From Candidatus Rokuibacteriota bacterium (GTDB taxonomy: Bacteria > Methylomirabilota > Methylomirabilia > Rokubacteriales > CSP1-6): DNA of 64,000 nt. The stretch spans positions 5,880 through 69,879 of the forward strand of contig JACQWB010000136.1 of NCBI GenBank assembly GCA_016209385.1, in the 5' to 3' direction. Under the pieces are notes generated by a model. That model was given only the letters and a program-made list of their open reading frames with translations. It was not told where the DNA came from and searched no databases. Below are positions 4,468 to 63,224 of the stretch, piece after piece (within the stretch, counting starts at the first letter, position 1; each line of letters opens with the position of its first letter). The position numbers were made by a program, and so were the translations under genes.

Positions 4468-5892
4468 CTACACGACCTGCAGGTCGCGCTCAACAAGGAG
4501 CAGCCCTCCTTCGCGTGCCACCTTCCGCGTCTCTGGCGTAAATCCTTTCCGGCTGAAGAGGGCGAACGCTTCCTGACGCCCCTTCCGTCCCCACTGGACG
4601 CGGGCGGCCTTGGCCTTCAATTCCTGAAGAATATTGGTGCCAAGGGGTTTCGGGCTCCACTTCACCTCTCCGAACAGAATCGCGTTCTCCGCCTCGTTGA
4701 CGCCCACGATATCGATCCCGCCCTGGTCATCCCACCAGCGGCCGACCCTTTGGAGCCGGAACGGAAGCGCGTCGCTGCGGCGGATCGTCTCCCGCGCGAT
4801 GCGCTCGTAGGCCCGGCCCAGGAGATGCGGGAGGATCTGGCGGAACCGCTGGAGCGCCGGTCCGGTCTCGCCCAGGGCTAGGTCGCTGACGAAGGGGTAC
4901 ACGCACTCGAACCAGAGGGCAATGAAGGGGTCCTGGATGCTGTAGAGCGACCGCTTGGATCGCTGGGGCGCCTTCTCGGTGACCGGCACTTCGCGCACGA
5001 TGAGCTGGAGGTTCTCGAGCACATGGAGGTACTTATGGAGGACGTTCTTGGCCAGCCCGGTGTCGTTGATTATTTCGCCGAACTTGCGCTTGCCCTGGCT
5101 GAGGGCCCGGAGAATGGCCGCGTAGTTGCGGGGCTCGCGGAGTTCTTCCTTCAAAAGGAAATCCACCTCGCGGAAAAGAAAGGCGCCGGGCGTGAGGATC
5201 TGCCCCCGCACGTTTTCGTCCAGGCCGGCCCTCAGGTCGAACTGGCGGAGGTAGCCGGGCATTCCCCCCAGCAGCGCGTAAACCTCGACGCACTTTTCGA
5301 ACGACCAGCGCTTTGGAAGAAACTCGCGGACGCCTGAGAAATCCAACGGCAGCACCAGGAGGTCGCCCGTGCGCCGTCCGTAGAGCGGGGCGCGCTGGAC
5401 CAGGGTCTCCGACTCCATCATCGCCATCGAGGATCCGCAGAGGATCAGGCAGAGGGGAAGACGGCTCAGGGTCTCGTCCCACCCCTTCTGGAACAGCGAG
5501 GAGGTGGCGGGGTTGTTCTCGACAAGGTAGGGATACTCGTCAATGGCGAGCACGAGCTCATGAGGTTTCCTGGTCTTCCCTCGAGGCAGCCTTGCATTCA
5601 GGTACTCGAAGGCCTCCAGCCAGCCAGCGAAGCCTTTACGCCCGATAAACGGATCGTCAAAGTGTGTCCCGAGGCGGGCGGCGACCTCCTTGAGCTGGTC
5701 CGGGTCCGGCCGGCGGTCGGCGAGCACGTAGACAGCCGGCTTGTCGCGGATGAATCGCTTGAGAAGCTCCGTTTTCCCGACCCGGCGCTTTCCGTAAACG
5801 ATGAGCAGCTGCGGATCGCGGGCGCTCCAGCGCTGCTCCAGCCACCTCAGATCGATCTCCCGGTCGATGAACTTCATTGGCCCCTGGCCCAC
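4468..5892 (-). CDS. ATP-binding protein of the Arch_ATPase (AAA) + DUF234 family.
   Basis: Walker A motif GKRRVGKTEL, followed by a DUF234-type C-terminal region. Start is GTG at 5892 or ATG at 5877. Confidence 0.8.
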   Translation of the reverse strand: MGQGPMKFIDREIDLRWLEQRWSARDPQLLIVYGKRRVGKTELLKRFIRDKPAVYVLADRRPDPDQLKEVAARLGTHFDDPFIGRKGFAGWLEAFEYLNARLPRGKTRKPHELVLAIDEYPYLVENNPATSSLFQKGWDETLSRLPLCLILCGSSMAMMESETLVQRAPLYGRRTGDLLVLPLDFSGVREFLPKRWSFEKCVEVYALLGGMPGYLRQFDLRAGLDENVRGQILTPGAFLFREVDFLLKEELREPRNYAAILRALSQGKRKFGEIINDTGLAKNVLHKYLHVLENLQLIVREVPVTEKAPQRSKRSLYSIQDPFIALWFECVYPFVSDLALGETGPALQRFRQILPHLLGRAYERIARETIRRSDALPFRLQRVGRWWDDQGGIDIVGVNEAENAILFGEVKWSPKPLGTNILQELKAKAARVQWGRKGRQEAFALFSRKGFTPETRKVAREGGLLLVERDLQVV

Positions 5893-13920: not shown

Positions 13921-14005
13921 GGACAATCGGAGGGGGCCTCGACGGCCCCCTCCGAGGCCTCCCCCAGGAATGGGTTGCGCGGGCGAAGCCCGCGCTCGAA
14001 GGGCT
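13921..14005 (+). repeat. Copy A of a dispersed hairpin-rich intergenic repeat (short form).
   Basis: GACAATCG-GAGGGGGCC-TCGAC-GGCCCCCTCC-GAGGCCTCCCCCAGGAATGG-GTTGCGCGGGCGAAGCCCGCGCTCGAAGGGC. It contains two perfect stem-loops. Confidence 0.85.
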
Positions 14006-14021
14006 TCACTTCGAGGCGCTC

Positions 14022-14714
14022 CTATCGGGCCGTGAAGAAGAGTATGCCCCGGTCGTCGCCGCCGAGGGTCAAATCGGTGGGTGCGGTCTCGAGCACGCCG
14101 TTGGGGCCCGCCGAGAGGATCCACCCCTTGGCGTTGGGGACGATCGGGGACCCGCTCGCCTCCATCGCCCCCACGCTGATGATATAGTTGTTCCCCCAGG
14201 GATCGGCGTGGAGCCGCGCGACGTACGCGCCCCTCCAGATCACCGTGCCGGTCGATGAGTAGTCGGTGTTGATGCCGGCTATAATTCCATCGGCGTTGGG
14301 GTTGTTTACGACAAGGTGGTTGAACGTATTGTTCCTCGCGGGGGTCGGCTCCTGGTTGAGCGCGAAGTTCCATGCGCCGGTGGCGTCCGTCGGATCGGGA
14401 GACGTGACGCTCGCCGGCACGCCGGAGCTCTCGCCCACCCGCAGGAACTTGAGGTTGTTGTTGTCGCCGGGCCCGGTGCCATTGATCGGGTCACAGTCGG
14501 CGGTGTTGCACGTCGGGTAGTGCCGCATGTCCCTCAAGAACTGGCTCAAGGCGGTCGCCAGCTCCGCCACGTCCACGTCCGCCTGCGTGAGGCGCGCATC
14601 ATCGAGCAGGTCGATCGCGAGCGGCAAGAAGATGGACGCGAGGATCCCCACGACCGCCAGAACGAAGACCATCTCCATCAGCGTGAACCCACCCTGGTCC
14701 CTCATTCGGTTCAT
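14022..14714 (-). CDS. Prepilin-type N-terminal cleavage/methylation domain protein (large type IV pilin / pseudopilin-like).
   Basis: N-terminus RDQGGFTLMEMVFVLAVVGILA is the GFTLxE class-III signal motif. 230 aa. Confidence 0.75.
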   Translation of the reverse strand: MNRMRDQGGFTLMEMVFVLAVVGILASIFLPLAIDLLDDARLTQADVDVAELATALSQFLRDMRHYPTCNTADCDPINGTGPGDNNNLKFLRVGESSGVPASVTSPDPTDATGAWNFALNQEPTPARNNTFNHLVVNNPNADGIIAGINTDYSSTGTVIWRGAYVARLHADPWGNNYIISVGAMEASGSPIVPNAKGWILSAGPNGVLETAPTDLTLGGDDRGILFFTAR

Positions 14715-14747: not shown

Positions 14748-16163
14748 CTAGCCGTGAGCGGTTCGGACCATGTCTCGGTCGTCCGACCGTTCCGATCGCG
14801 TTCGTTGCCCGTGCGATGGTGCCGTCGTCTGAGCCGCCGGGAGGCGGATGGTGACGGTGGTCCCCCGTCCCGTGGCGCTCTCCATGGCGAGCTCGCCCCT
14901 GTACTGCTGGAGGATCCCGTAGGCCAGGCTGAGCCCGAGCCCCGTGCGCTGGGGCCCCTTGGTGGTGAAGAACGGCTCCAGCGCTCGCCGCCGCACTTCC
15001 TCGGACATCCCGGCGCCGGTATCGCTGACCGCGAGGCAGACCATCCGGTTCGCGAGGACAGTCCGAAGCGTGATCCGGCCGCCCCCCGGTACGGCCTCCA
15101 GGGCGTTCAGGATCAGGTTCATGACCACTTCCCGCAGGGCGACGGCGCTCGCCATCACCGGTGGGACATCCCCCGCCTCCAGGGCCGCATCGATCGGGAT
15201 GCCCTGGCCCTGGATCGGCGCCAGCCAGCGGACTCGCGTCATTTCCAGCGCGTCGGCAGCCACCTGGTTCAGGTCCACGGCCTCCGCCTCATCCACCGGC
15301 TGCATCTGCACGAATCGCTGGAGACGCCGCACCACCTCCGCCGCATCCGTGGCCGCCTGCTCCATCATCTTCAGGGAGTCCCGGGTGGCGGGCGCGTGTA
15401 CCGTCGGGAGCAGCAGCTCGATTCGCAAGAGCAGGACCGTCAGCAGGTTGTTCAGGTGGTGGGCGGCCCCGGCCCCCAGCTCCCCCAGAGCTCGCAGCGT
15501 TTCATCGCGCAGGCACTCCTCATGGGTCGCCTTGAGACCGGCCAATGCCCGCTGAGCTTCCGCATGGAGACGCGCGTGTTCGAGAGCCAAGGCCGCCAGC
15601 TCGCACACGGTTTGCGCGAGGTGGATCTCCTTGTCCTTGAATACGCGCCCCGCCCGGTCCCCGACCTCAAGCGCGCCGATCACCACCCCCGCGGCGATCA
15701 GCGGCACGGCCAGCGCCGCGCGATGGCCAGCCAGCTCGAGGTGGGCGCGCACGTCGGGCGTGAGCCTGACGCGGGGATCGGTGAGCTGGTTCGGCGTGAC
15801 GACCGGACGGCGCTTGCGAACGGCGAGACCGGCCAGGCCGGTGCGCCGCGGAAAGACTACGTGCGGACCGACGGTCGGCCCCACCTCGCCGGCCCAGGCC
15901 AGCACCTCGAGGGCCCCTGACTCCCGGTCCACGCGGTAGAGGGTGGCGTTCAGGGCCCGGAGCAGCGCGTGGATGCTGGCTGCTGTCTTCTGCCAGACCT
16001 GCTTCGGATCGAGCGGCCCGGAGAAGGGCCGTTCCGCATCCGGCGGGGTCTTGAGGCTGAGGATGGTGGAGGTTGCCTGCTGTGGGCTTTCAGCGGGACG
16101 AGGCTCGCCCCAATCTTCTCGATTGGGGCCCTGAGCCGATGAAGCCCTACCGGTCGAGTTCAT
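14748..16163 (-). CDS. GAF-domain sensor histidine kinase (HisKA + HATPase_c).
   Basis: H-box AAHHLNNLLTVLL. G-box GLGLSLAYG. Start at ATG 16163, preceded by a GGGAGAGAG Shine-Dalgarno sequence. The track ORF begins at 16253. Confidence 0.8.
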   Translation of the reverse strand: MNSTGRASSAQGPNREDWGEPRPAESPQQATSTILSLKTPPDAERPFSGPLDPKQVWQKTAASIHALLRALNATLYRVDRESGALEVLAWAGEVGPTVGPHVVFPRRTGLAGLAVRKRRPVVTPNQLTDPRVRLTPDVRAHLELAGHRAALAVPLIAAGVVIGALEVGDRAGRVFKDKEIHLAQTVCELAALALEHARLHAEAQRALAGLKATHEECLRDETLRALGELGAGAAHHLNNLLTVLLLRIELLLPTVHAPATRDSLKMMEQAATDAAEVVRRLQRFVQMQPVDEAEAVDLNQVAADALEMTRVRWLAPIQGQGIPIDAALEAGDVPPVMASAVALREVVMNLILNALEAVPGGGRITLRTVLANRMVCLAVSDTGAGMSEEVRRRALEPFFTTKGPQRTGLGLSLAYGILQQYRGELAMESATGRGTTVTIRLPAAQTTAPSHGQRTRSERSDDRDMVRTAHG

Positions 16164-16450
16164 GGCACCGCTCTCTCCCAGCGTCGTCACACCTACTCCT
16201 AGCCTTGTCACCCCATGAATAAACTCTGAGCCCCGCGGCATGAATCCGGTCAATCCCTCAGCCGAGGACGAGAAAAACCCTGACGGGGGGAGCAGGTGTT
16301 CGCTGCTGCCGGCTCGGGGGTTTCGCGTATTCCCGGCCGTCGTCCAAGCGGCGAGCCTGAGCGTTCTGACTTGCCTTTAATTTCGGGGGCTTCGCCCCTC
16401 GCTGGCAGGCCTCGGCCGCGCCGCGGCTTCAGGGATTCTCCGGAGCATGG

Positions 16451-16470
16451 AATCAGGTATTTACCTGATT
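16451..16470. promoter_or_regulatory. Perfect 9-bp inverted repeat with a 2-bp spacer (AATCAGGTA-TT-TACCTGATT) in the divergent HK / rsbR intergenic region.
   Basis: AT-rich palindrome in an otherwise ~70% GC region. Its half-site matches the GGAATCRGGTG motif seen upstream of other operons. Confidence 0.5.
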
Positions 16471-16518
16471 TCGCACGTCGCGCAGCTCGCCTAGGTTCAC
16501 CTCATGCTGCACTGCTGC

Positions 16519-16644
16519 GAGGTTCGAGCCGAGGGGCGTCGGCCATGCCGGAGGCAGGCCCGTCACGAGGCGAGGCCCAATGAGGTTCGAGCCGAGGGGC
16601 GTCGGCCATGCCGCAGGCAGGCCCGTCACGAGGCGAGGCCCAAT
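16519..16644 (+). repeat. Tandem direct repeat, 2 x 63 bp, one mismatch. It is homologous to the insertion module found in the long variants of the dispersed repeat.
   Basis: GAGGTTCGAGCCGAGGGGCGTCGGCCATGCC[G/C]GAGGCAGGCCCGTCACGAGGCGAGGCCCAAT occurs twice head-to-tail. Confidence 0.9.
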
Positions 16645-17078
16645 ATCGAAGCGCCAGCCCGGGGAGAGACGCGATGAAGCCGGACCAGACGGATCCATCC
16701 CCGCGGCGTCGCCGAACCAGGTGCGACGGCCAGCAGCGTCTTCGGGCGCCGCCCGCGCGACCGCCGGGTTGGAGCGCGCCGAGCAGGTGGTGGGGATGCT
16801 CTCGGCGCCATGGCCGGCCTTGACAACGTTGGCGGGATCACAGCAGAGTAAAAGATGACATTCGGACTTCTCCCTTCGGTCCAGCTATGAGACGATTGGT
16901 TTCCTTATGCGCGGGCATCCCTCGTCCCTCGAAGGGAGAGCAACCCGGAGGCCTTTCCCGCGAATGGCGCCCGGTGGTCCCTGACGAGGTGGGTCTCCTT
17001 GCTGGCCTCGGAGGCTCCCATCGACTTGACCAAGATAGTCCAGGCCTCCCCTGAGGTCTGCTAAGGAGGAAGGTGTCT

Positions 17079-17990
17079 ATGGCTGACACTCGAATGAGCT
17101 CGACCCCGGTTATCAGTCCGCCCGCTCGAGACGAATCCACCACGGTGCTCCTCCGCGAGCTGGTGGCGCACCTTCGGCAGAGCCGCACCCAGCTCCGCGA
17201 GGAATGGGCGCGGCGCATCACCGAGGCCAAGTTGCTGACGGCGATGACCCCGGAGGAGATCTTCGCCGAGGCCACGGCCGTGTACGACAACTACCTCGAG
17301 GCCCTGGAGACTGGATCGATCGAGGCCCTGGAAACCTACGCCCGCAACCTGTCAGAGCGGATCATTCCGCGAGGGGTCGAGACGCACGAGGTCGTGGGTA
17401 TCGTGCTCCTGCTCCGCGACGTGCTCGCCCGGTCGCTGTTCGCCAAGTACCAGCAAGACTTCCATCAGCTCAACCGCATCCTGGACGCCTACGAGCCTGC
17501 GGCCAACCGGATCGCCAACACGGTGGCCGTGGGCTTCGTCCAGGAGCGGGAGCGGGTCATCCGCCAGCAGCAGGAGGCGATCCGTGAGCTGTCCACTCCG
17601 GTGCTGCCGGTTCGGGAGCGGCTGCTGGTCCTCCCGGTTATCGGTATCATCGACCCCCAGCGCGCCAGGCAGCTGACGGAGCAGCTCCTCCGCGGCATCC
17701 GGATCAACCGCGCGAAGGTGGTGGTCATGGACATCACGGGCGTGCCGGCCATGGACGCCACGGTGGCCAACCACCTGGTGCAGACGGTGGAGGCCTCGCG
17801 GCTCCTGGGGGCCACTGTCATCGTCACCGGCCTGTCGCCCGAAATCGCCCAGACGCTGGTCAACATCGGCGTGGACCTGGGCAAGATGAACACGGTGGGC
17901 GACCTGCAGGGCGGCATCGAGGAGGCCGAGCGGCTGTTGGGTTACAAGGTCATCCCGATCACGGTTGAGGCGCCGGTAGCGACCTCATAG
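17079..17990 (+). CDS. rsbR: RsbR-like stressosome sensor protein (N-terminal non-haem globin-like sensory domain + C-terminal STAS domain).
   Basis: STAS region VLPVIGIIDPQRARQLTEQLL...VVVMDITGVPAMDATVANHL. AAGGAGGA Shine-Dalgarno sequence 8 nt upstream of ATG 17079. Confidence 0.8.
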   Translation: MADTRMSSTPVISPPARDESTTVLLRELVAHLRQSRTQLREEWARRITEAKLLTAMTPEEIFAEATAVYDNYLEALETGSIEALETYARNLSERIIPRGVETHEVVGIVLLLRDVLARSLFAKYQQDFHQLNRILDAYEPAANRIANTVAVGFVQERERVIRQQQEAIRELSTPVLPVRERLLVLPVIGIIDPQRARQLTEQLLRGIRINRAKVVVMDITGVPAMDATVANHLVQTVEASRLLGATVIVTGLSPEIAQTLVNIGVDLGKMNTVGDLQGGIEEAERLLGYKVIPITVEAPVATS

Positions 17991-19402: not shown

Positions 19403-20700
19403 AGGACGCCGTGCAGGCGCTCGCGGAAGAGTATACGGCGGCGTTGAAGGAGTACCTGGCCGGCCGGGAGGAAGCGCTTCTGCAGCGCGCCTACGAACTC
19501 GGACGCAAAGCGCTCGCCGGCGGGTTGGGCGTGGTGGAAATGGTCACGCTCCACCGGGAGGCCATGGTGAACGTCTCGCCTGCCGCGCTCGATCAAGTCG
19601 CGGAGGCTGTGAGCGCGGCGGGGAACTTCCTGGCGGAGAGCCTGTCGCCCTTCGAGATGACGCACCGCGGGTTCCGCGAAGCGAATGCCGCGCTGCAGGT
19701 GAGCGAGGCGCGCTATCGCGAGCTGTTCGAGAACGCCAACGACATCATCTTCACCACGGATCTCGAGGGGAACTTCACCTCGATCAATCGGGCCGGCGAG
19801 CAACTCAGCGGCTACCAGCGCGACGAGACGGCTTCGATGAGCTTCGCGGCGGTCATCGCACCCGAGGACCTCGAGCGGGCGTGGACGATGCTCCAGCGGA
19901 AGCTCACGGGCCAGGCGGAACGCACCAGTTACGAGTTAGAGATCCTTACGAAGGACGGGCGCCGTGTCCCGCTCGAAGTCAGTACCCGGCTGATCTACCA
20001 CGAGGGGAAGCCCGCCGGGATCCAGGGCATTGCCCGCGATGTGACCGAGCGCAAGCGGGCCGAGCAGGCGGTGCGCCGGCTGAACGAGGTGCTGGAGGAG
20101 GAAACGAGACGGCTCGCCCATGCGCTCCACGACGAGGCGGGGCAGCTCCTGGTCTCCGTGTACCTCGCGCTGGAAGAGATCGGACGCGAGCTGCCCGCTC
20201 GGGCCCGCGGGCGTCTCCAGGAGGTGACGGCGTTGCTCGACCAGATCGAGGAGCAACTGCGGAGGCTCTCCCACGAGCTCCGTCCCACGATTCTGGACGA
20301 CCTGGGGCTCGTGCCTGCGGTCGAATTCCTGGCAGGAAGGGTCGCCAAGCGGAGTGGACTCCGGATCGGCGTCGAGGGCTCGACGGGGGGGCGGCTGCCA
20401 CCGTTGATGGAGACCGCCCTGTACCGGAGCGTGCAGGAGGCCCTGGCCAACGTGGCGAGACACGCTCAGGCCACCCGCGTGAGGGTCCACCTCCGGCGGG
20501 AGGCCCGCGCGATCCGGTGTTCCGTCCGGGATGACGGTGTCGGCTTCGACGTGGGGACCGTCCTGGCGCGACGGGGCGACCGCGGCCTGGGGTTGGTCGG
20601 GATTCGGGAGCGGGCCGGCGCGTTAGGGGGCACGCTCGAGGTCATTTCCGCCCCCGGCCGGGGAACCGAGCTGCTCATCACGATTCCCCTGGGGACCTGA
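19399..20700 (+). CDS. Sensor histidine kinase with an N-terminal RsbU_N (RsbT-binding) domain, a PAS domain, a HisKA_3 (NarL-type) dimerisation domain and HATPase_c.
   Basis: N-terminal ~90 aa resemble the RsbU N-terminal domain. PAS region FENANDIIFTTDLEGNFTSINRA. H-box LAHALHDEAGQLL. G-box DRGLGLVGIRERA. ATGA overlap with rsbX. Confidence 0.8.
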   Translation: MKDAVQALAEEYTAALKEYLAGREEALLQRAYELGRKALAGGLGVVEMVTLHREAMVNVSPAALDQVAEAVSAAGNFLAESLSPFEMTHRGFREANAALQVSEARYRELFENANDIIFTTDLEGNFTSINRAGEQLSGYQRDETASMSFAAVIAPEDLERAWTMLQRKLTGQAERTSYELEILTKDGRRVPLEVSTRLIYHEGKPAGIQGIARDVTERKRAEQAVRRLNEVLEEETRRLAHALHDEAGQLLVSVYLALEEIGRELPARARGRLQEVTALLDQIEEQLRRLSHELRPTILDDLGLVPAVEFLAGRVAKRSGLRIGVEGSTGGRLPPLMETALYRSVQEALANVARHAQATRVRVHLRREARAIRCSVRDDGVGFDVGTVLARRGDRGLGLVGIRERAGALGGTLEVISAPGRGTELLITIPLGT

Positions 20701-20702
20701 CG

Positions 20703-21335
20703 ATGCCACTTCGGATCCTCTTGGCCGACGATCATCAGATCGTCCGTCAGGGGTTGAAAGCCATCCTCGAGCGGGAGGGGTTCGGCATCGCCGGCGAGGC
20801 GGCGGACGGCCACGAGGCAGTCCGGCTGGCCCGGGAGGTGTCCCCCGATGTGGCCGTCCTCGATCTCGCGATGCCGCTGCTGAACGGGCTGGGCGCAGCG
20901 CGCGAAATCCACCCGGCTTCCCCCCGGACGCGAACGATCCTGCTGACCATGCATACCGAGGACCAGTACATCCTGGAGGCCCTCCGGGCCGGATTCAAGG
21001 GGATCGTCTTAAAGAGTCAGGCCGCCGCGGACCTGGTCCAGGCGATCCGGGAGGTTTCCCGGGGAGGGATCTACCTGAGCCCCGGCGTCTCCCGCGCGGT
21101 GGTCGAGGCGTATCGGGCCAAGACCGAGCTTGTCGCCGATCCCCTCACTCCCCGGGAGCAAGAAGTCCTCCAGCTGATCGCCGAAGGAAAGACGACGAAG
21201 GAGATCGCGACCCTGCTCGGGGTCAGCGTCAAGACCGCGGAGTCCCACCGGACCCGGCTCATGGACAAGCTCGACATCCACGAGACCGCCAGCCTGGTCC
21301 GCTACGCCATCCGTCGGGGCCTGGTCGAGCCCTGA
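20703..21335 (+). CDS. NarL/FixJ-family response regulator (REC + LuxR-type HTH).
   Basis: ILLADDHQIVRQG...VAVLDLAMP...LTPREQEVLQLIAEGKTTKEIA. Confidence 0.85.
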   Translation: MPLRILLADDHQIVRQGLKAILEREGFGIAGEAADGHEAVRLAREVSPDVAVLDLAMPLLNGLGAAREIHPASPRTRTILLTMHTEDQYILEALRAGFKGIVLKSQAAADLVQAIREVSRGGIYLSPGVSRAVVEAYRAKTELVADPLTPREQEVLQLIAEGKTTKEIATLLGVSVKTAESHRTRLMDKLDIHETASLVRYAIRRGLVEP

Positions 21336-21552
21336 CCCCGGCGGCCCCCGCGGGCCGCCCCCTTTCCCGTTCAGGGGTTCCCCTCCCTTGTAATCCAGAG
21401 TTCACCGGATTGCCCTGCCCTGCGTGGAAAGGCCACACTTTCTTCGTACTTTACTATGTTGAGCACGGTTGATCGTCAGGCACGGTGGAAGCCGTCGGAG
21501 GGCTGGGTGCCCCACAAGGACGGGGATCGTCGTCTGCAGGGGAGACTTCGAG

Positions 21553-22185
21553 TTGCCGCTACGCATCCTCTTAGCTGACGACCACCTGATTGTTCGCCAG
21601 GGCGTCAAGGCGGTCCTCGAGCGCGAGGGGTTCGAGGTGGTCGCCGAGGCGGGAGACGGCCACGAGGCGGTCCAGATGGCCCGGGAGCATCATCCCGACG
21701 TGGCAGTCCTGGATCTTGCCATGCCGCTGCTGAACGGCCTGGATGCGGCGCGCGAGATTCCCCCCGTCTCGCCGCGGACGCGAACGATCCTGCTGACGGT
21801 GTACGCCGACGATCCGTACGTCGTGAAGGCGCTGCAGGCGGGGATCAGCGGCTACGTGTTGAAGACCCAGGCTGCGGCGGACCTCGTGCGGGCGATCCAG
21901 GAGGTCTCCCGGGGAGCGATCTACCTGAGCCCCGGCGTCTCCCGCACGGTCGTCGAGGCCTATCTGGCTAAGAGCGACCTCCCCCCCGACCCGCTGACCC
22001 CGCGGGAACGCGAGGTCCTACAGCTGATCGCCCAGGGGAAGCGGACGAAGGAGATCGCCCAGCTCTTGGGAATAGGGGTGAAGACCGCCGAGTCTCACCG
22101 GGCGCGGGTCATGGAGAAGCTGAACATTCACGAGACCGCCAGCCTGGTCCGCTACGCCGTCCGCCACGGCCTGATTCAGCCGTGA
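21553..22185 (+). CDS. NarL/FixJ-family response regulator, tandem paralogue of 20703-21335 (~70% identical). TTG start inferred by alignment with the paralogue.
   Basis: LPLRILLADDHLIVRQGVKAVLEREGF aligns with the paralogue's N-terminus. GGGGAG Shine-Dalgarno sequence upstream of TTG 21553. Confidence 0.8.
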   Translation: MPLRILLADDHLIVRQGVKAVLEREGFEVVAEAGDGHEAVQMAREHHPDVAVLDLAMPLLNGLDAAREIPPVSPRTRTILLTVYADDPYVVKALQAGISGYVLKTQAAADLVRAIQEVSRGAIYLSPGVSRTVVEAYLAKSDLPPDPLTPREREVLQLIAQGKRTKEIAQLLGIGVKTAESHRARVMEKLNIHETASLVRYAVRHGLIQP

Positions 22186-22502: not shown

Positions 22503-22570
22503 GTCCCCTCACCCGGGCGCAGCGCCCTCCTGAAGCGGAGCCGCGTTTCTAGATAGGCCGTGATGATTAG

Positions 22571-22737
22571 GAGCGTGTCGGAGTAATGCCCTTCGAGCGC
22601 GGGCTTCGCCCGTGCAATTGACTCGGGCCTCGCGCGGCGGGTGGCCTGCCTCGCGGCATGGCCGAACCCGCCACGCTCGAACCACCATTCCTGGGGGAGG
22701 CCTCGGAGGGGGCCGTCGAGGCCCCCTTCGATTGTTC
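22571..22737 (-). repeat. Copy B of the dispersed repeat. Long form with a ~70-bp internal module. Reverse orientation.
   Basis: The reverse complement matches copy A end-to-end. It has an insertion homologous to the 63-bp tandem unit at 16519-16644. Confidence 0.85.
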
Positions 22738-23040
22738 TAGCTGCAGCCCGGCCTTCAGCCGCCCTCTCCCGGCCCGCCATCCTCAGAGATCTTTCAGCGC
22801 AATTCCCGATCGAACTGCGTTAGGTTCGGGGATTTTCCGCCCCCCGATTGGAGCGTTCGACGGATTGTAAGCCTGCTGGCTCGCCGCCTAGCCTTTACGG
22901 AGGGCGGAATTTCGAGGCTGCCGACAACTCGGGAAGCACAAACAGGAGGGGCGGAAGATGTAAAGAACGGAGCGGACGAACCATTCAAGTCCACAGCTAG
23001 CAGGGAAAAATAGCCGGTAAACGGCCAGAGGAGAAACGCT

Positions 23041-25267: not shown

Positions 25268-26398
25268 ATGGCGATGCGGGCGGGAGGGGCCGCGCTGGCG
25301 GTCGTGCTCCTGGGAGCGGTGCTCGTCCCGGGCCTCGCCGGCGCTCAGCCTGGCGTCTTCGTGACTCCCTCCTTCTCCATCGCCGAGGTGTACGACGACA
25401 ACCTGTTCTTCACTCCCTCCCGACGCGAGAAGGACCTGATCTCGCGCTTCAGCCCGGGGATTCAGGCCGGCTACCAGTCCGTCCCGCTCACGCTCCTGGG
25501 TCGCTACACGTTCGACGCGGAGATCTATCCCGACCACCCGGAGCTGGACGACGCCCAGGTGCGCCAGGAAGCCGGGATCGAGTTCCGGTCCCGGCCAAAC
25601 CGGACGCTGACGCTGTCGTTCGACGGGGCATTCCTGGAAACGCAAACGCCCGGCCAGCTCAACGTGGCGACCGGCATTCTGGTGGGGCGGGTGCGCGCCC
25701 AGCGCCTCTCCGCCAAGCCCGGCGTCGCCTACGAGTTCGACCCCCTCACGGCCGGGGCTGCGGAGTACACGTTGACGGAGGACGAGCTGTCGGGGGGTGT
25801 CACGATCCTGACCCATGTCGGCGACCTTCGCCTCGACCGGCGGATCACGCCGCTGGACACGGGGAGCGTGGGCTATACCCTCCGCGAGTTCGACTTCGAC
25901 CCGGGCGGCACCACCACCTCCCATGCGGTCACGCTCGGCTGGACGCGCCAGCTCACGCCGCTGACGAGCCTCACGCTTCGCGGCGGACCCCGCTTCAGCG
26001 AGGGGTCGGTGGACCCGGAAGTCTCGGCCTCGATCCGCCATCGGCTCAGGCTCGGGGAGGTCTCGTTCACGTACTCGCGCAGCCAGACCACGGTCATCGG
26101 GCGGGCGGGCAGCGTGGACAACGAGGCCTTCATCGCCACCGCGGTGCTCGAGCCCCTGCCGTCGCTGGAGGTACGCGCCGCGCCGAGCCTCCTTCGGACC
26201 TTCGACGCCGACCGGGAAGCCAGGGTGTACGCGCTGGATCTGACGGCCGAATACAAGATCACGGCGTGGCTTTCCCTCGAAGGCGCCTACGAGTTCAGTT
26301 TCCAGGAGGGCGGCGTCAACGCGATACGCGACGAGGAGATCTCCCACAATATCATCCTGCTGCGGCTGACCGTCAAGCAGCCCTACCGCATTTACTAA
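25268..26398 (+). CDS. Outer-membrane beta-barrel protein of the EPS locus (EpsL-like).
   Basis: Signal peptide. Alternating amphipathic beta-strands throughout. C-terminus ends with the aromatic residue RIY. Confidence 0.65.
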   Translation: MAMRAGGAALAVVLLGAVLVPGLAGAQPGVFVTPSFSIAEVYDDNLFFTPSRREKDLISRFSPGIQAGYQSVPLTLLGRYTFDAEIYPDHPELDDAQVRQEAGIEFRSRPNRTLTLSFDGAFLETQTPGQLNVATGILVGRVRAQRLSAKPGVAYEFDPLTAGAAEYTLTEDELSGGVTILTHVGDLRLDRRITPLDTGSVGYTLREFDFDPGGTTTSHAVTLGWTRQLTPLTSLTLRGGPRFSEGSVDPEVSASIRHRLRLGEVSFTYSRSQTTVIGRAGSVDNEAFIATAVLEPLPSLEVRAAPSLLRTFDADREARVYALDLTAEYKITAWLSLEGAYEFSFQEGGVNAIRDEEISHNIILLRLTVKQPYRIY

Positions 26399-26400
26399 GA

Positions 26401-26498
26401 CAGTCGGAGGGGGCCTCGACGGCCCCCTCCGAAGCCTCCCCCACGAATCGGTTGCGCGGGCGAAGCCCGCGCTCGAAGGGCATTGACTCCGACACGCT
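26401..26498 (+). repeat. Copy C of the dispersed repeat (short form).
   Basis: CAGTCGGAGGGGGCCTCGACGGCCCCCTCCGAAGCCTCCCCCACGAATCGGTTGCGCGGGCGAAGCCCGCGCTCGAAGGGCATTGACTCCGACACGCT. Confidence 0.85.
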
Positions 26499-26618
26499 AC
26501 TAGGCGGTCGGTTTCCGCCCCCGTTCCTCGAGGGCCGCGCCTGTCGGCTTGAGCGGCAGGCGGCCTTCGCCCCACCCCGATTCTTCAAGCGACACGCCTC
26601 CCGATCCGGAGGAACGCC

Positions 26619-27224
26619 ATGGTGATTGCGCGGCTCGTTTGGCGACTCGTGATCCCGGCGCTCATCGTCGGCGCGACCGCGCTGGCCGTGGGACACGGCC
26701 GCGCGTGCGGTGAGGAAGGGGCCGCCGCCGTCGAGCCCGGCGATTACCGGATCGGGCCGGAGGACGTGCTCGACATCGCGGTCTGGAACAACACGGCGGT
26801 CAGCCGAACGGTCCCCGTGCGGCCGGACGGCAAGATCTCGCTCCCGCTCGTGAACGACATCCGGGCGGCGGGCCTGACGCCGATGCAGCTCCGGGATGTC
26901 CTGATGAAGAAGCTCGTGGAGTACATGCCTCAGCCCGAAGTGTCGGTCATCGTGCGGGAGGTGCGCAGCTTCAAGGTATCGGTTCTCGGCGAGGTGAAGA
27001 CGCCGGGTCGGTACGAGCTGCGGAGCCGGAGCACCGTGCTGGATGTCCTTGCCATGGCCGGCCCGTTCAGCGAGTTCGCCGCCCGCTCGCGGATCATCAT
27101 CCTCCGCCACGACGGCAGCAGCAGCATCAAGCGGATCCCGTTCAACTACAACACGGCCATCTCGGGGCACGTGAACGGGGAGAGCTTCTTCCTCCAGCCC
27201 GGGGACATCATCCTGGTGCCGTAG
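26619..27224 (+). CDS. Periplasmic polysaccharide export protein (Wza-like Poly_export + SLBB; EpsE-like).
   Basis: DYRIGPEDVLDIAVWNN...VRPDGKISLPLVNDIRAAGLTPMQL matches the polysaccharide-export family. Confidence 0.8.
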   Translation: MVIARLVWRLVIPALIVGATALAVGHGRACGEEGAAAVEPGDYRIGPEDVLDIAVWNNTAVSRTVPVRPDGKISLPLVNDIRAAGLTPMQLRDVLMKKLVEYMPQPEVSVIVREVRSFKVSVLGEVKTPGRYELRSRSTVLDVLAMAGPFSEFAARSRIIILRHDGSSSIKRIPFNYNTAISGHVNGESFFLQPGDIILVP

Positions 27225-27248
27225 CCGGCACCCTCGGGGGGGAACGAC

Positions 27249-27830
27249 ATGACGACTCGCGCGCGACTCGGTGCATTGCTGGTGATCCTGGCGGTGGGCG
27301 GGCCGGGTCTGGTCTCGGCCCAGCAACCCGGCAAGGCTCAGGAGCCGGGTGAATTCCGGATCGGGCCCGGGGACGTCCTGGAGATCTCCGTGTGGAACAA
27401 CGCGGCGCTCAGCCGAACGGTCCCCGTGCGGCCGGACGGCAAGATCTCCCTCCCGGTCCTGAACGACGTGCAGGCGGCGGGCCTCACCACGGTGGAGCTG
27501 CGGAACATCCTGAAGAAAAGCCTGGCCGCCTACGTCGCCGCTCCGGAGGTCTCCGTGATTGTCCGGGAGGTGCACAGCTTCGCGGTCTCGGTCGTTGGCG
27601 AGGTGAAGACACCCGGCCGCTACGAGCTCACGACTCGGAGCACGGTGCTGGATGCCCTTGCCATCGCCGGCCCGTTCAGCGACTTTGCCGCCCGCTCGCG
27701 GATCGTGATCCTGCGCAACGAGGGCGGGAAGACCAAGCGGATCCCGTTCAACTACAACAAGGCCGTCTTGGCGGACGGGCAGCAGGAGAACTTCTTCCTC
27801 CGGCCCGGCGACGTCATCGTGGTGCCGTAG
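27249..27830 (+). CDS. Second polysaccharide export protein, tandem paralogue of 26619-27224.
   Basis: Same motifs (EFRIGPGDVLEISVWNN...VRPDGKISLPVLNDVQAAGL), ~70-75% identity to its neighbour. Confidence 0.8.
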   Translation: MTTRARLGALLVILAVGGPGLVSAQQPGKAQEPGEFRIGPGDVLEISVWNNAALSRTVPVRPDGKISLPVLNDVQAAGLTTVELRNILKKSLAAYVAAPEVSVIVREVHSFAVSVVGEVKTPGRYELTTRSTVLDALAIAGPFSDFAARSRIVILRNEGGKTKRIPFNYNKAVLADGQQENFFLRPGDVIVVP

Positions 27831-27849
27831 GCGGTCCGGGGGGGGACGC

Positions 27850-33414: not shown

Positions 33415-33525
33415 GAATGCTCGAAGGGTCCACTTGGGGACAGCCGAAGCGCTTCGGGCGCGGGCTTGGCCCGCGCAATCTCGGGGGGAGGTTCGGAAGG
33501 GGGGCGGAGCCCCCCTCCGAGGATC
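33415..33525 (-). repeat. Copy D of the dispersed repeat (degenerate).
   Basis: Retains both hairpins: GCGCGGGCTTGGCCCGCGC and GGAAGGGGGGCGGAGCCCCCCTCC. Confidence 0.55.
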
Positions 33526-39002: not shown

Positions 39003-39020
39003 ATGAACCGCGAATCCCAG

Positions 39021-39230
39021 GAGCGTGTCCGAGTAATGCCGCCGGGGAAATTCCATCGCGTCCGAGCGCGGGCTCTGCCCGCGCAATTGACTCCGGGCTC
39101 GTGCGGCGGGTGGCCTGCCTCGCGGCATGGCCGAACCCGCCACGCTCGAACCACCATTCCTGGGGGAGGCCTCGGAGGGGGCCCGGGTACCCACGCCGGA
39201 GGCGTGGGTGTCCCCCTCCGATGGGGCTAG
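39021..39230 (-). repeat. Copy E of the dispersed repeat. Long form with extra inserted segments and an enlarged terminal hairpin.
   Basis: GAGCGTGTCCGAGTAATGCC...GGCATGGCCGAACCCGCCACGCTCGAACCACCATTCCTGGGGGAGGCCTCGGAGGGGGCC...CCCCCTCC. Confidence 0.8.
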
Positions 39231-43156: not shown

Positions 43157-44296
43157 ATGTACGTGCCGGCATGGCCGGGCCTCGACCCAGCCTACCTCGT
43201 TCGGTGGCGCACCGCAGAACACGCTCCGTTCCCGCTGAACGCGCCGAAGCGCGCGTATTTCTATCGGGCGCGGAATGCGATTTACCACCTGTTCCGTGCC
43301 CTGGGCGGCCAGAACGGGAAGACCGTTCTCGTGCCCGACTACCACAGTGGCAACGAAGTCTGGGCGATCCGCGCCGCCGGGGCCGCCATACGCTATTACC
43401 GCGTGGGTCGGAACCTGGAACCGGATCTCGAGTACTTGAGACGCGTGTGCAGATCCGCCGACCCGGGCGCGTTGTTCATCATTCACTATCTGGGCTGGCC
43501 TCAACCGGTGAAGGAACTCCTGGCCTTGTGTCAGGAGCGGGGAATGCTCCTGATCGAGGATTGTGCGCTTTCGCTCCTCAGCGAGACCCGTGGGCGACCC
43601 CTCGGGACGTTCGGCCAGTACGCGGTGTTCTGCCTGTACAAGAGCTTGCCGCTGCCGCACGGCGGGCTGCTCGTCCAGAACGATCACGTGCTGGAGGAGC
43701 TGACCAGGCTCGAGCTGAAGCCATGCGGTGTGGCGTCGGTCGCGGGCAGAACCGCGGAGTTGATGCTGGAGTGGCTCCGGGCGCGGTCGGATTCTCCCGC
43801 GCGGATGCTGTTTTCCCTCAAGCGAGGGACCGGGCGGGTGCTGACTGCGCTCGGCGTCGACCGATTGCCGGTCGGTGAGATCGGGTTCGATCTGTCGAGC
43901 GTGAACGTCGGGATCTCGCCCCTGAATCTCGGCCTGTTGCGGCGGTTTGACTATGAGGCCATACGCCGGAGACGTCGGGAGAATTTCCGGCGGCTGCGCG
44001 AGAAGCTGGTTGGCAAAGCCACGCTGTTGGACAAAGAGCTTGAGGAGGGCGTGTGTCCCCTGTTCTTTCCGATTCTGGTCCCGGACAAACGGTTCGCCGC
44101 CCGGGCGTTACGCGAGCGCGGAATCGCCGCGGTCGAGTTCTGGAACTACGGTGATCCCGGGGCGGAGGGGAAGGAGTTCGCGGATGCCCGGTTCCTTCGC
44201 GCCCATGTTCTCGAGCTGCCGATCCATCAGGACATCACGCCGGCTCAGGTCAGTTACATGGCGGATCAGGTGGTGCGCCTGAAGCTGTATTTCTAG
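43157..44296 (+). CDS. DegT/DnrJ/EryC1/StrS-family aminotransferase-like protein (PLP fold).
   Basis: LLIEDCALSL...GQYAVFCLYKSLPLPHGGLL parallels the DegT motif around the PLP lysine. Confidence 0.55.
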   Translation: MYVPAWPGLDPAYLVRWRTAEHAPFPLNAPKRAYFYRARNAIYHLFRALGGQNGKTVLVPDYHSGNEVWAIRAAGAAIRYYRVGRNLEPDLEYLRRVCRSADPGALFIIHYLGWPQPVKELLALCQERGMLLIEDCALSLLSETRGRPLGTFGQYAVFCLYKSLPLPHGGLLVQNDHVLEELTRLELKPCGVASVAGRTAELMLEWLRARSDSPARMLFSLKRGTGRVLTALGVDRLPVGEIGFDLSSVNVGISPLNLGLLRRFDYEAIRRRRRENFRRLREKLVGKATLLDKELEEGVCPLFFPILVPDKRFAARALRERGIAAVEFWNYGDPGAEGKEFADARFLRAHVLELPIHQDITPAQVSYMADQVVRLKLYF

Positions 44297-44394
44297 GACA
44301 ATCGGAGGGGGCCTGGACGGCCCCCTCCGAGGCCTCCCCCAGGAATCTGTTGCGCGGGCTAAGCCCGCGCTCGAAGGGCATACTCCGACAGGCT
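44297..44394 (+). repeat. Copy F of the dispersed repeat (short form).
   Basis: GACAATCGGAGGGGGCCTGGACGGCCCCCTCCGAGGCCTCCCCCAGGAATCTGTTGCGCGGGCTAAGCCCGCGCTCGAAGGGCATACTCCGACAGGCT. Confidence 0.85.
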
Positions 44395-44408
44395 TTTAGC
44401 CAGGCCTG

Positions 44409-61902: not shown

Positions 61903-63224
61903 TGCGCGTGAGCGTCTTCGGGCTGGGATACGTCGGATGCGTGAGCGGGGCCTGCCTGGCGAGGGCAGGACACGAGGTGGTCGGGGTCGATGTGAACTCG
62001 GAGAAGGTGGCGATGGTCAACGCCGGCTCGTCGCCGATCGTGGAGCCCGGGCTGGGCGACCTGCTGGCCGAGGTCGTCGGGGCCGGCCGGCTGAGGGCCA
62101 CGGTCTCGAGCGAGGAGGCTGTTGAGGGCTCGGACCTCGCGCTGGTCTGTGTCGGCACGCCGGGGCGCCCCAACGGGCAGCTGAACGTGGAGGCCGTGGC
62201 GCGCGTCGGGAGCGAAATCGGTCGGGCCCTCGCCGGGCGGCCGGACCCGTACACGGTCGTGCTCCGGAGCACCGTCCTTCCCGGAACCACGGAGCGGGTC
62301 CTCGTCCCCGCCCTCCTCGCGGGCGTCGGGGCGGAGTCGGGATCCCGCCTGCGAGTGGCTGTCAATCCGGAGTTCATGCGCGAGGGTTCCGCCCTGCGGG
62401 ACTTCGCGCATCCTCCGCTCACGCTGGTGGGGTGCGAGGATCCGGAAACCGCCTCCCAGCTCCGGTCGCTCTACGCGGCTGTCGATGCGCCATTCATCGC
62501 CACAGCGACGAAGACGGCGGAGATGGTCAAGTACGTGTCGAACGCCTTCCACGCGCTCAAGATCTGCTTTGCCAACGAGATCGGTGACGTGTGCGCGGCG
62601 CTGGGCGTCGACGCCCACGAGGTGATGCGCATCTTCCTCCTGGACAGGAAACTCAACGTGTCCGAGGCGTACCTGCGCCCGGGGTTCGCCTTCGGCGGCT
62701 CGTGCCTGCCGAAGGACCTCCGGGCGTTGCTCTACCGCGCGCGCGCCGCCGACATCGGCGTCCCGCTGCTGTCCGCAGTCCTGCCCTCGAATGAGGGGCA
62801 GATCCGACGGGCGGTGGAGGCGGTCCTGGAAACGCGAATGCGACGGGTGGGAGTGGTGGGCCTCGCCTTCAAGCCCGGGACCGACGACCTCAGGGAAAGC
62901 CCAATGGTTGCGCTCGTGGAAGCGCTCATCGGCAAGGGGTGTGACGTGCGCGTTCTCGACGCGGATGTCTCGATCGCCCGGCTGGTCGGAGCGAATCGCC
63001 GCTACATCGAGGAGGAGATCCCGCATATCGCGTCGCTGATGTGCCAGGACGTGGCGACGCTGCTCGCCCACGCCGAGGTGCTGGTGATCGGCAACCCCAG
63101 CCCGGAGGTGGCGCGGGCCCTGGCGGCGGTCGGCCCTCACCAGGTCGTCGTCGATCTCACGCGGGGCGCAGTCGACCGGCGGGCAGGGCCGGGTGAGGGG
63201 GGTCCCCTGCGATGCGTCGAATAG
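61899..63224 (+). CDS. Nucleotide-sugar 6-dehydrogenase (UDP-glucose / GDP-mannose dehydrogenase family).
   Basis: MRVSVFGLGYVGCVSG Rossmann motif. Catalytic motif GFAFGGSCLPKD. Confidence 0.85.
   Translation: MMRVSVFGLGYVGCVSGACLARAGHEVVGVDVNSEKVAMVNAGSSPIVEPGLGDLLAEVVGAGRLRATVSSEEAVEGSDLALVCVGTPGRPNGQLNVEAVARVGSEIGRALAGRPDPYTVVLRSTVLPGTTERVLVPALLAGVGAESGSRLRVAVNPEFMREGSALRDFAHPPLTLVGCEDPETASQLRSLYAAVDAPFIATATKTAEMVKYVSNAFHALKICFANEIGDVCAALGVDAHEVMRIFLLDRKLNVSEAYLRPGFAFGGSCLPKDLRALLYRARAADIGVPLLSAVLPSNEGQIRRAVEAVLETRMRRVGVVGLAFKPGTDDLRESPMVALVEALIGKGCDVRVLDADVSIARLVGANRRYIEEEIPHIASLMCQDVATLLAHAEVLVIGNPSPEVARALAAVGPHQVVVDLTRGAVDRRAGPGEGGPLRCVE

Follow-up and report, generated by a model that had tools for sequence, protein, structure and literature searches.

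A head-to-tail pair of 63-bp palindromic units in Rokubacteria and the modular repeat family to which it probably belongs

The closest described counterparts of the element treated here, a tandem of two 63-bp units at positions 16519-16644 of a 64,000-nt stretch of Candidatus Rokuibacteriota DNA (positions 5,880 to 69,879 of contig JACQWB010000136.1, assembly GCA_016209385.1; this whole stretch is called the window below), are intergenic repeats of other bacteria. Neisserial intergenic mosaic elements (NIMEs) are head-to-tail arrays of 50-150-bp RS units that have conserved boundaries (dRS3) and differing interiors. The variable-number tandem repeats formed by mycobacterial interspersed repetitive units (MIRU-VNTR) are 40-100-bp tandem units of variable number, intercistronic and mostly in one orientation to transcription, and descriptions of MIRUs give them no dyad symmetry but short open reading frames (ORFs) that overlap neighbouring genes. 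The BOX element is composed of outer modules on either side of an internal one, of which there may be none, one or a tandem series; its size changes as internal modules are gained and lost, the sets of modules differ between lineages, boxB is reported to fold independently of the outer modules, and the element carries terminal inverted repeats and target-site duplications (PMC3049150). Repetitive extragenic palindromic sequences (REPs) and the bacterial interspersed mosaic elements (BIMEs) are abundant GC-rich extragenic imperfect palindromes, often located between cistrons or at the 3' end of genes, for which roles in mRNA stabilisation, termination and protein binding have been proposed (PMC2817692, PMC3116915, PMC3733652). 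REPs measure 20-40 bp and bear an unpaired GTAG or CGTC tag, their clusters alternate in orientation while head-to-tail dimers are rare or absent, and the CGTC REPs have an 8-9-bp stem starting with A-T, a 4-5-nt loop and a CCA-like tail; dRS3 is counted among the CGTC-1 REPs and is said to occur in clusters (PMC3733652).

Set beside these systems, the tandem of the window probably consists of two non-coding palindromic modules of about 63 nt, of a type designated S, which are members of a mosaic repeat family of Rokubacteria and were duplicated locally; how the family spreads and how it affects its surroundings we infer from sequence comparison. A repeat search, a family hidden Markov model (HMM) and reading of the sequence identified six composite copies in the window in addition to the tandem. 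Short composite copies consist of a 5' arm, a hairpin SL1 (GCGCGGGCTTCGCCCGCGC) and a hairpin SL2 (TCGGAGGGGGCC-GTCGA-GGCCCCCTCCGA), and in long copies a module of about 66 nt, of a type designated E, is inserted between SL1 and SL2.

By analogy, the best reading is that the family comes closest in architecture to pneumococcal BOX (A-Bn-C). As in the BOX elements of Streptococcus pneumoniae and S. suis, the number of internal modules varies, here between none, one (SL1-E-SL2) and two (at locus L094), and the Rokubacteria module folds on its own branch in composite copy B. The match concerns architecture only, as sequence homology is implausible between DNA of 68% GC and hosts of about 40% GC that belong to another phylum. 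No clear counterpart of the terminal inverted repeats and target-site duplications of BOX, moreover, was found in the Rokubacteria family, and its internal module has a free-living S-type sister that forms arrays without outer modules. Such a free-living, array-forming sister lineage is not known to be typical of boxB.

The units resemble REPs and BIMEs in their conserved stem and free loop, in forming mosaics with other motifs and in being GC-rich hairpins between cistrons, but they are about 63 nt long and every doublet and array found is head-to-tail. Membership of the REPs, and of the CGTC REPs in particular, was rejected: the 8-bp stem begins with G-C and contains a bulge, CGTC is paired within the covarying lower stem, and a CCA tail is absent. 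The mixed arrays described below are reminiscent of NIMEs, although their boundary is the pair GGGCCTCGCCTCG ... CCTCGGCTCGAAC rather than the dRS3 inverted repeat and the host phylum is a different one; we know of no link between the Rokubacteria repeat and a phage integrase. Intercistronic units in sense orientation, as described for MIRU-VNTR, are seen at several loci, while two loci show the opposite orientation and the window copy is situated in a divergent intergenic region. Membership of the MIRUs was likewise rejected, as the unit forms a hairpin and no frame survives the 1-nt indels in its loop. An attC identity (R'' RYYYAAC / R' GTTRRRY) was discarded, since the unit ends ATTGGGCC... 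/ ...GCTCGAAC fit neither consensus by eye and the units abut without an ORF, as was a CRISPR-like reading, given that no spacers separate the units and the apparent "variable cores" are a few conserved types.

Two module lineages and a shared hairpin

Tandem Repeats Finder reports for 16519-16644 a period of 63 bp, 2.0 copies, 98% matches, no indels and a score of 245, and direct comparison places the single difference between the head-to-tail units at position 33 of the unit, where unit 1 has G and unit 2 has C; this bears out the earlier note's description of two such units with one mismatch. There are exactly two 63-bp copies, the repeat extends into neither flank, and the unit phase chosen in the earlier note coincides with the natural unit boundaries of stand-alone copies elsewhere. 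Both units are S-type modules whose orientation corresponds to the minus strand of the window, unit 1 at 16519-16581 (nhmmer with the module HMM, 60.6 bits; alignment A1) and unit 2 at 16582-16644 (61.5 bits). Unit 1 holds the derived loop base at 16551; most other S units share the base of unit 2 in column 33, and unit 2 is the nearer of the pair to the S-type consensus, being 96.8% identical to unlinked copies in L139 and L135. Other occurrences of the unit-end motifs (13 nt, 2 mismatches) are found in the 64-kb window at chance frequency only, and the tandem is therefore its sole S-type site. The units also match the nhmmer profile of the long-copy family, at 16655-16580 (E = 0.001) and 16580-16519 (E = 0.008). 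The first of these matches covers HMM positions 44-120 and runs on to 16655, and the flank GGCGCTTCGAT at 16645-16655 (minus strand), which resembles GGCGCTCGAAC beside the S unit in L125, might possibly be a decayed remnant of an SL1-type flank.

The connection with the long composite copies was the central proposal of the earlier note, which had taken the unit for the very module inserted in copies B and E and had estimated its reverse complement to be about 75% identical to the distinguishing segment. The 72-nt insert quoted there is found at 22615-22686 without a mismatch and at 39084-39155 with 3 mismatches, where 0 matches are expected by chance. Local alignment of the copy-B insert yields a score of 50 with the reverse complement of the unit and of 15 with the unit in forward orientation, compared with a mean of 16.8 (sd 3.1, max 36) for 2000 dinucleotide shuffles and a mean of 14.5 (sd 2.9, max 35) for 3000 random 63-mers drawn from the window; in blastn the reverse complement is 76.3% identical across 59 nt. 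The estimate of identity thus held, and the similarity is not, as the note's refuting condition would have it, what random GC-rich sequence gives, the observed score being above that of every shuffle and every random 63-mer. Judged by these alignments, the unit is homologous to the segment inserted in copies B and E, far beyond what chance would produce at 68% GC.

They do not, however, represent one and the same module. Alignment A1, which contains 45 modules, resolves two discrete types, of which E is embedded between SL1 and SL2 with one exception (L130) and S is the stand-alone form that includes the window tandem. Mean identity is 89.8% among S modules and 90.0% among E modules, calculated on unlinked copies within each type, and 71.9% between S and E. 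Both types share nearly invariant unit ends and a nearly invariant central GGCCTGCC-loop-GGCATGGCC, whereas the differences between S and E cluster in the two arms beside the centre and are compensatory (T-A to G-C, G-C to C-G); one pair even varies between G-C, A-T, C-G and G-T among the S units, which measure 63-65 nt. Because the two types differ by such concerted compensatory changes in the lower stem, the long copies were not made by insertion of an S-type unit. The proposed identity of the modules consequently stands as far as homology is concerned, with the qualification that the tandem belongs to a distinct sister lineage.

The compensatory changes define an imperfect hairpin at 16535-16564 in unit 1 and one of identical form at 16598-16627 in unit 2, both supported by a pairing count on 44 distinct family members and by RNAalifold. 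Its lower stem of 4 bp is followed by a 2-nt bulge and by an upper stem of 8 bp (GGCC-A-TGCC / GGCA-GGCC), in which one base bulges out; the loop measures 3 nt. Across these members 92.9% of the cells are paired, as against 30-43% after a shift of the partners by 1-3 columns; in seven pairs both positions change, and none of 500 shuffles reaches the observed covariation score. In the upper stem six of the eight pairs never vary, whereas the lower stem covaries, and the S type keeps pairs 13-56, 18-51, 20-49 and 21-48 together with the whole upper stem. Run blind on A1, RNAalifold recovered the same pairs and added a closing helix at the unit ends, which in S units pair over 5 bp. Both the sequence and the length of the loop (3-5 nt) are variable, and the sole difference between the window units falls within it. 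Sequence conservation exceeds what pairing needs, and the count of G-T wobbles against A-C mismatches (10 versus 12) reveals no evident strand preference. Each 63-nt unit is one long imperfect palindrome with a constrained top and constrained ends, a middle constrained by pairing and a free loop.

The region is also non-coding, because codon-position GC shows no periodicity between about 16050 and 17080 (it is strongly periodic in both flanking genes), because the ORFs overlapping the tandem have no match in Pfam, and because the 1-nt loop indels among family members would break any conserved frame. The search of Rfam returned nothing at gathering score in the whole 64-kb window and two chance-level matches (E = 2 and 7.3) in 16100-17100. 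An upstream mini-ORF, with a ribosome-binding site, an ATG and 12 codons in each unit, was considered as well and is ruled out by the reading ATG-CCG-TGA in L134 and by the 1-nt differences in loop length.

Distribution, placement and origin of the pair

Scanning one genome per species for the shared core pattern retrieved long composite copies from at least 22 contigs of one uncultured metagenome-assembled genome (MAG; CAYJUC01) and from one Candidatus Rokuibacteriota MAG, the remaining matches being scattered single ones. Core-pattern matches in Gemmatimonadota, Latescibacterota and other MAGs were rejected, as they lie in an alignable stretch with conserved flanks that was read as protein-coding and that may resemble a family-2 glycosyltransferase motif. 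A metagenome scan with the exact unit-specific pattern GACGGGCCTGCCTN{1,3}GGCATGGCCGACGCC gave 0 matches, whereas a looser pattern common to both module types gave 32 further loci. Most copies have one embedded module; L094 has two in tandem between SL1 and SL2, and, because these are only 80% identical to each other, this embedded doublet would appear to be old or of independent origin. Stand-alone single S units were found in L135, L137, L139, L132 and L133/L148, stand-alone doublets in L134 and in L149, where the contig end cuts the doublet, and mixed head-to-tail arrays with other unit types of about 65 nt in L130, L132, L141, L147 and L150. At least two such further types share the ends of S and E and differ in their interiors (GCTNTCCTCGCCTSCGRCTTGTCSGMAGCC; CGCTGGCGCCGGCGA...GCTGCCG); all their occurrences are in mixed arrays, and none was seen in the window. 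The modularity claimed earlier is therefore real: the module has been met embedded once, embedded twice, alone, doubled and in mixed arrays. A full-text literature search on intergenic repetitive sequence in Rokubacteria found no paper, and the family is a previously undescribed, lineage-specific modular interspersed repeat, a feature of an ordinary and known kind.

In L139, L137, L134 and L130 the unit or array occupies the whole interval from a stop codon to the ribosome-binding site of the next gene, and the GAGG-rich strand (plus in the window) is the sense strand, with which L132, L141 and L147 probably agree; L149 and L133 have the opposite orientation. In L147 and L141 the units directly precede a start codon, the GAGG-rich 3' end in L147 lying 6 nt before the ATG. 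The genes flanking stand-alone units are unrelated ones of housekeeping function and encode an enoyl-CoA hydratase, a short-chain dehydrogenase, a globin and an Fe-S assembly protein. In L133 (885-948) and L148 (725-787) an S unit is contained in a 132-codon open frame of high third-codon-position GC (GC3), with a weak match to the CMD (carboxymuconolactone decarboxylase) domain beginning within the unit; comparable to the Rickettsia palindromic elements, it may have inserted in frame within a gene.

We consider it probable, then, that the tandem is a locally duplicated pair of S-type modules, and the following model would account for it. The modules combine as building blocks, an E-type module between SL1 and SL2 giving a long copy and none giving a short one, while S-type units are found singly, in pairs or in head-to-tail strings with other unit types, chiefly within short intergenic spacers. 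A sequence-specific protein, analogous to those proposed for BOX and for REPs with their REP-associated tyrosine transposases (RAYTs), would recognise the DNA (or RNA) hairpin and copy or recombine whole units; such a protein is suggested by the near-invariance of the upper stem and unit ends beside a covarying lower stem. A single S-type unit would have arrived upstream of the rsbR-like operon that follows the tandem in the window and would then have been duplicated locally, with one point change in the loop of unit 1 afterwards. If transcribed, the pair would provide the rsbR leader with additional stable stem-loops, which could affect read-through or the stability of the mRNA; a gene-specific regulatory role is not to be expected.

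Several observations weigh against this interpretation. Compared with GC-rich shuffles, one S-type unit by itself shows no clear gain in stability (z = -1.4 sense, -0.2 antisense; the whole tandem on the plus strand, with z = -3.5, folds better than shuffles), and the structural case rests on covariation, much of which separates the two lineages and hence represents few independent events. Unlinked S units from metagenomes are up to 96.8% identical to the pair, which has no alignment column to itself. The analysis met with neither a transposase nor a target-site duplication nor any clear terminal inverted repeat, a result that includes no search aimed at Y1 transposases, and inspection of the flanks of stand-alone units by eye showed no consistent target-site duplication; mobility is deduced from the existence of dispersed near-identical copies. 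Finally, 7-8 of 10 stand-alone arrays share their orientation to neighbouring genes, a bias that is suggestive without being significant and that hints, in a sample too small to decide, at a constraint at the RNA level which a purely selfish-DNA model does not predict.

As to the origin of the pair, local duplication is favoured as the most economical explanation, because the two units, at 98.4% identity, are each other's closest relatives among the copies found, because both end in a CCTC combination seen in no other S unit sampled, and because the units of the L134 doublet share private variants (CGCGACGG, loop TCAC), which indicates that local duplication occurs in the family. The same observations speak against two separate insertions, in which a second S unit landed precisely beside the first through a machinery that prefers unit ends and in which near-identity merely reflects conservation of a master copy. 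This scenario we regard as unlikely but worth keeping in mind, in that the duplicated segment has natural unit boundaries, that L130, L132, L141, L147 and L150 join differing unit types at these same boundaries, something slippage cannot do, and that unlinked copies approach the pair so closely without any column private to it. For the last reason near-identity says little about age. The earlier view of a recent duplication or slippage accordingly survives in part: local duplication remains the most economical account, whereas 98.4% identity is weak evidence for its being recent, and slippage fails to explain the coincidence with unit boundaries or the mixed-type arrays elsewhere. A duplicated segment with natural boundaries, together with those arrays, suggests a process that handles whole units. 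In a more specific version of such a process, speculative and in our opinion improbable, the S units would be the substrate of a putative hairpin-specific Rokubacteria enzyme that adds whole units head-to-tail at their boundaries (the near-palindromic junction GCTCGAAC / GTTCGAGC), the mixed arrays would favour transcribed intercistronic spacers, and the units would act as RNA stem-loops setting the relative expression of neighbouring genes. If true, this would be a mode of amplification and a niche unlike those of REP/RAYT systems, with their inverted doublets, or of classical miniature inverted-repeat transposable elements, with their terminal inverted repeats and target-site duplications.

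The remaining explanations concern function and coding. An S unit might be a functional cis-acting RNA element, that is, a stabiliser, a processing site or a translation modulator bound by a dedicated protein, and the tandem a dosage variant acting on the rsbR operon. The exact filling of stop-to-ribosome-binding-site gaps in one orientation at four loci, the position directly before start codons at two others, the conservation beyond pairing requirements and the plus-strand fold of the tandem would all agree with it, but short operon spacers force any tolerated insertion to lie beside a stop codon and a ribosome-binding site, the orientation bias is not significant and is contradicted by L149 and L133, wobbles and A-C mismatches betray no preferred strand, no Rfam family matches, and the tandem is located 435 nt from the start of rsbR, three homologues of which lack a unit; we judge this function rather unlikely. 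Very improbable is a protein-coding origin, as an in-frame repeat in a small gene or as a MIRU-like, translationally coupled short ORF. It can point to a unit length of 63 bp, a multiple of three equal to 21 codons, to ORF 16504-16677 (57 aa), which spans the tandem and whose TGA overlaps an ATG (ATGA at 16674-16677), and to the open frame around the L133/L148 unit; yet at 68% GC open frames are expected on every strand, codon-position periodicity and Pfam matches are absent over the region, other S units of 63-65 nt differ by 1-nt loop indels, and the internal ATG-led mini-frame of L134 ends at its third codon. That the resemblance of unit and B/E insert is a GC-rich coincidence and the tandem an isolated slippage product outside the family we regard as refuted: short GC-rich matches are indeed common in a window of 68% GC, as the chance frequency of the 13-nt end motifs illustrates, but the alignment score is more than 10 sd above the shuffles, compensatory changes preserve pairing between identical columns in the two types, and the invariant ends and upper stem are common to both types across 45 copies.

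The rsbR locus, the composite copies and the meaning of the family

The tandem occupies a non-coding gap of about 890 bp between divergent genes. On its left, 14748-16190 (minus strand) encodes a GAF-domain sensor histidine kinase (Pfam GAF, HisKA, HATPase_c) of 480 aa, which is 100% identical to its own NCBI record, a protein of a Candidatus Rokubacteria MAG, and for which the next match is only 49% identical. On its right, 17079-17990 (plus strand) encodes an RsbR-like STAS protein (Pfam STAS, RsbRD_N), the first gene of a stressosome-type operon, with homologues of 85-93% identity that are named RsbR or come from Rokubacteria and with no exact match on record. The tandem is placed 435 nt upstream of the rsbR start, its GAGG-rich strand being the sense strand of rsbR, and a scan of 16100-17120 for promoter and terminator consensus sequences found nothing. 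At three rsbR homologue loci in other Rokubacteria no unit was found upstream, and the homologues, whose identity reaches 93% in the cases for which a value was given, lie beside other upstream neighbours. Because these loci lack the unit and because of its distance from the gene, the tandem is an accessory insertion and not a conserved part of the rsbR operon leader; at this locus it is most likely a neutral or mildly modulating insertion.

A further site was noted in the same gap. An AT-rich perfect palindrome (ATCAGGTA-TT-TACCTGAT) is present at 16452-16472, about 50 nt before the tandem, and a 20-nt stretch, TCAGGTATTTACCTGATTTC, recurs identically upstream of an rsbR homologue in another Rokubacteria MAG (L122, 4688-4707), followed by a TATTAT box. 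The site probably serves the stressosome operon as a conserved operator or promoter element, and in the window the tandem is located between it and rsbR.

Of the two long composite copies in the window, copy B (22568-22740, plus strand; repeat search and family HMM, 159.5 bits) contains the 5' arm, SL1, an E-type module at 22622-22685 and SL2, and its predicted fold is multi-branched with the module as an independent branch (z = -4.3). Copy E (39019-39230, plus strand; pattern match and family HMM) has its E-type module at 39091-39154, and an extra nested GC-rich hairpin (CGGGTACCCACGCCGGAGGCGTGGGTGT) interrupts its SL2 at about 39184-39215. A similar nested insertion occurs within the E-type module of L141 (593-513), so that the mosaicism includes insertions of hairpins within hairpins. 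The short copies, composed of SL1 and SL2 with no module, are A (13922-14024), C (26394-26502) and D (44292-44400), all on the minus strand and identified by repeat search and HMM, and copy F (33447-33523, plus strand), which belongs to a subfamily with the GGAAGGGGGGC...GCCCCCCTCC variant of SL2 and whose weak HMM matches were confirmed by reading the sequence. Copy A begins at the TAG stop codon of a pilin-like gene (14022-14714).

The ends of the composite elements share GTCGGAG / CTCCGAC and often abut TAG / CTA. The elements very often start at a stop codon or a few bases from it (TAG|GAGCG...), as at 13922-14024, 22568-22740, 26394-26502, 44292-44400 and many other loci, and they end in ...CTAG, where the opposite strand provides the stop codon of the convergent gene. 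This suggests either a preference for TA/TAG targets or a role at gene ends resembling that of a terminator. With a crude GC3-based gene caller the composite elements showed no orientation bias with respect to flanking genes, both orientations being found.

Elsewhere in the window two pairs of 300-nt direct repeats of 76-77% identity were observed, 20691-20990 / 21541-21840 (850 nt apart) and 26733-27032 / 27342-27641 (609 nt apart; also 27096-27228 / 27702-27834). They resemble tandemly duplicated paralogous genes, the first pair probably being response regulators downstream of the rsbR operon. ARAGORN called a tRNA-Gln (CTG) of 91 nt at 62058-62148, unusually long for a bacterial tRNA, and the call may be spurious, since the Rfam scan at gathering score showed no tRNA there.

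Rokubacteria are abundant uncultured soil bacteria with large genomes, and contigs that start or end inside a module (L126, L128, L129, L145, L149, L150, L153, L154 and several CAYJUC01 contigs) indicate that short-read assemblies of these genomes evidently break at the family, as an interspersed repeat would lead one to expect. A defined family helps to explain such breaks, as many metagenome contigs end inside the element, its variable module number offers markers for strain typing, and its definition prevents spurious ORF calls across GC-rich repeats. Beyond these uses, the covarying lower stem beside an invariant upper stem and invariant ends clearly points to a protein that recognises the unit, and finding it would reveal the way in which head-to-tail mosaics are assembled.

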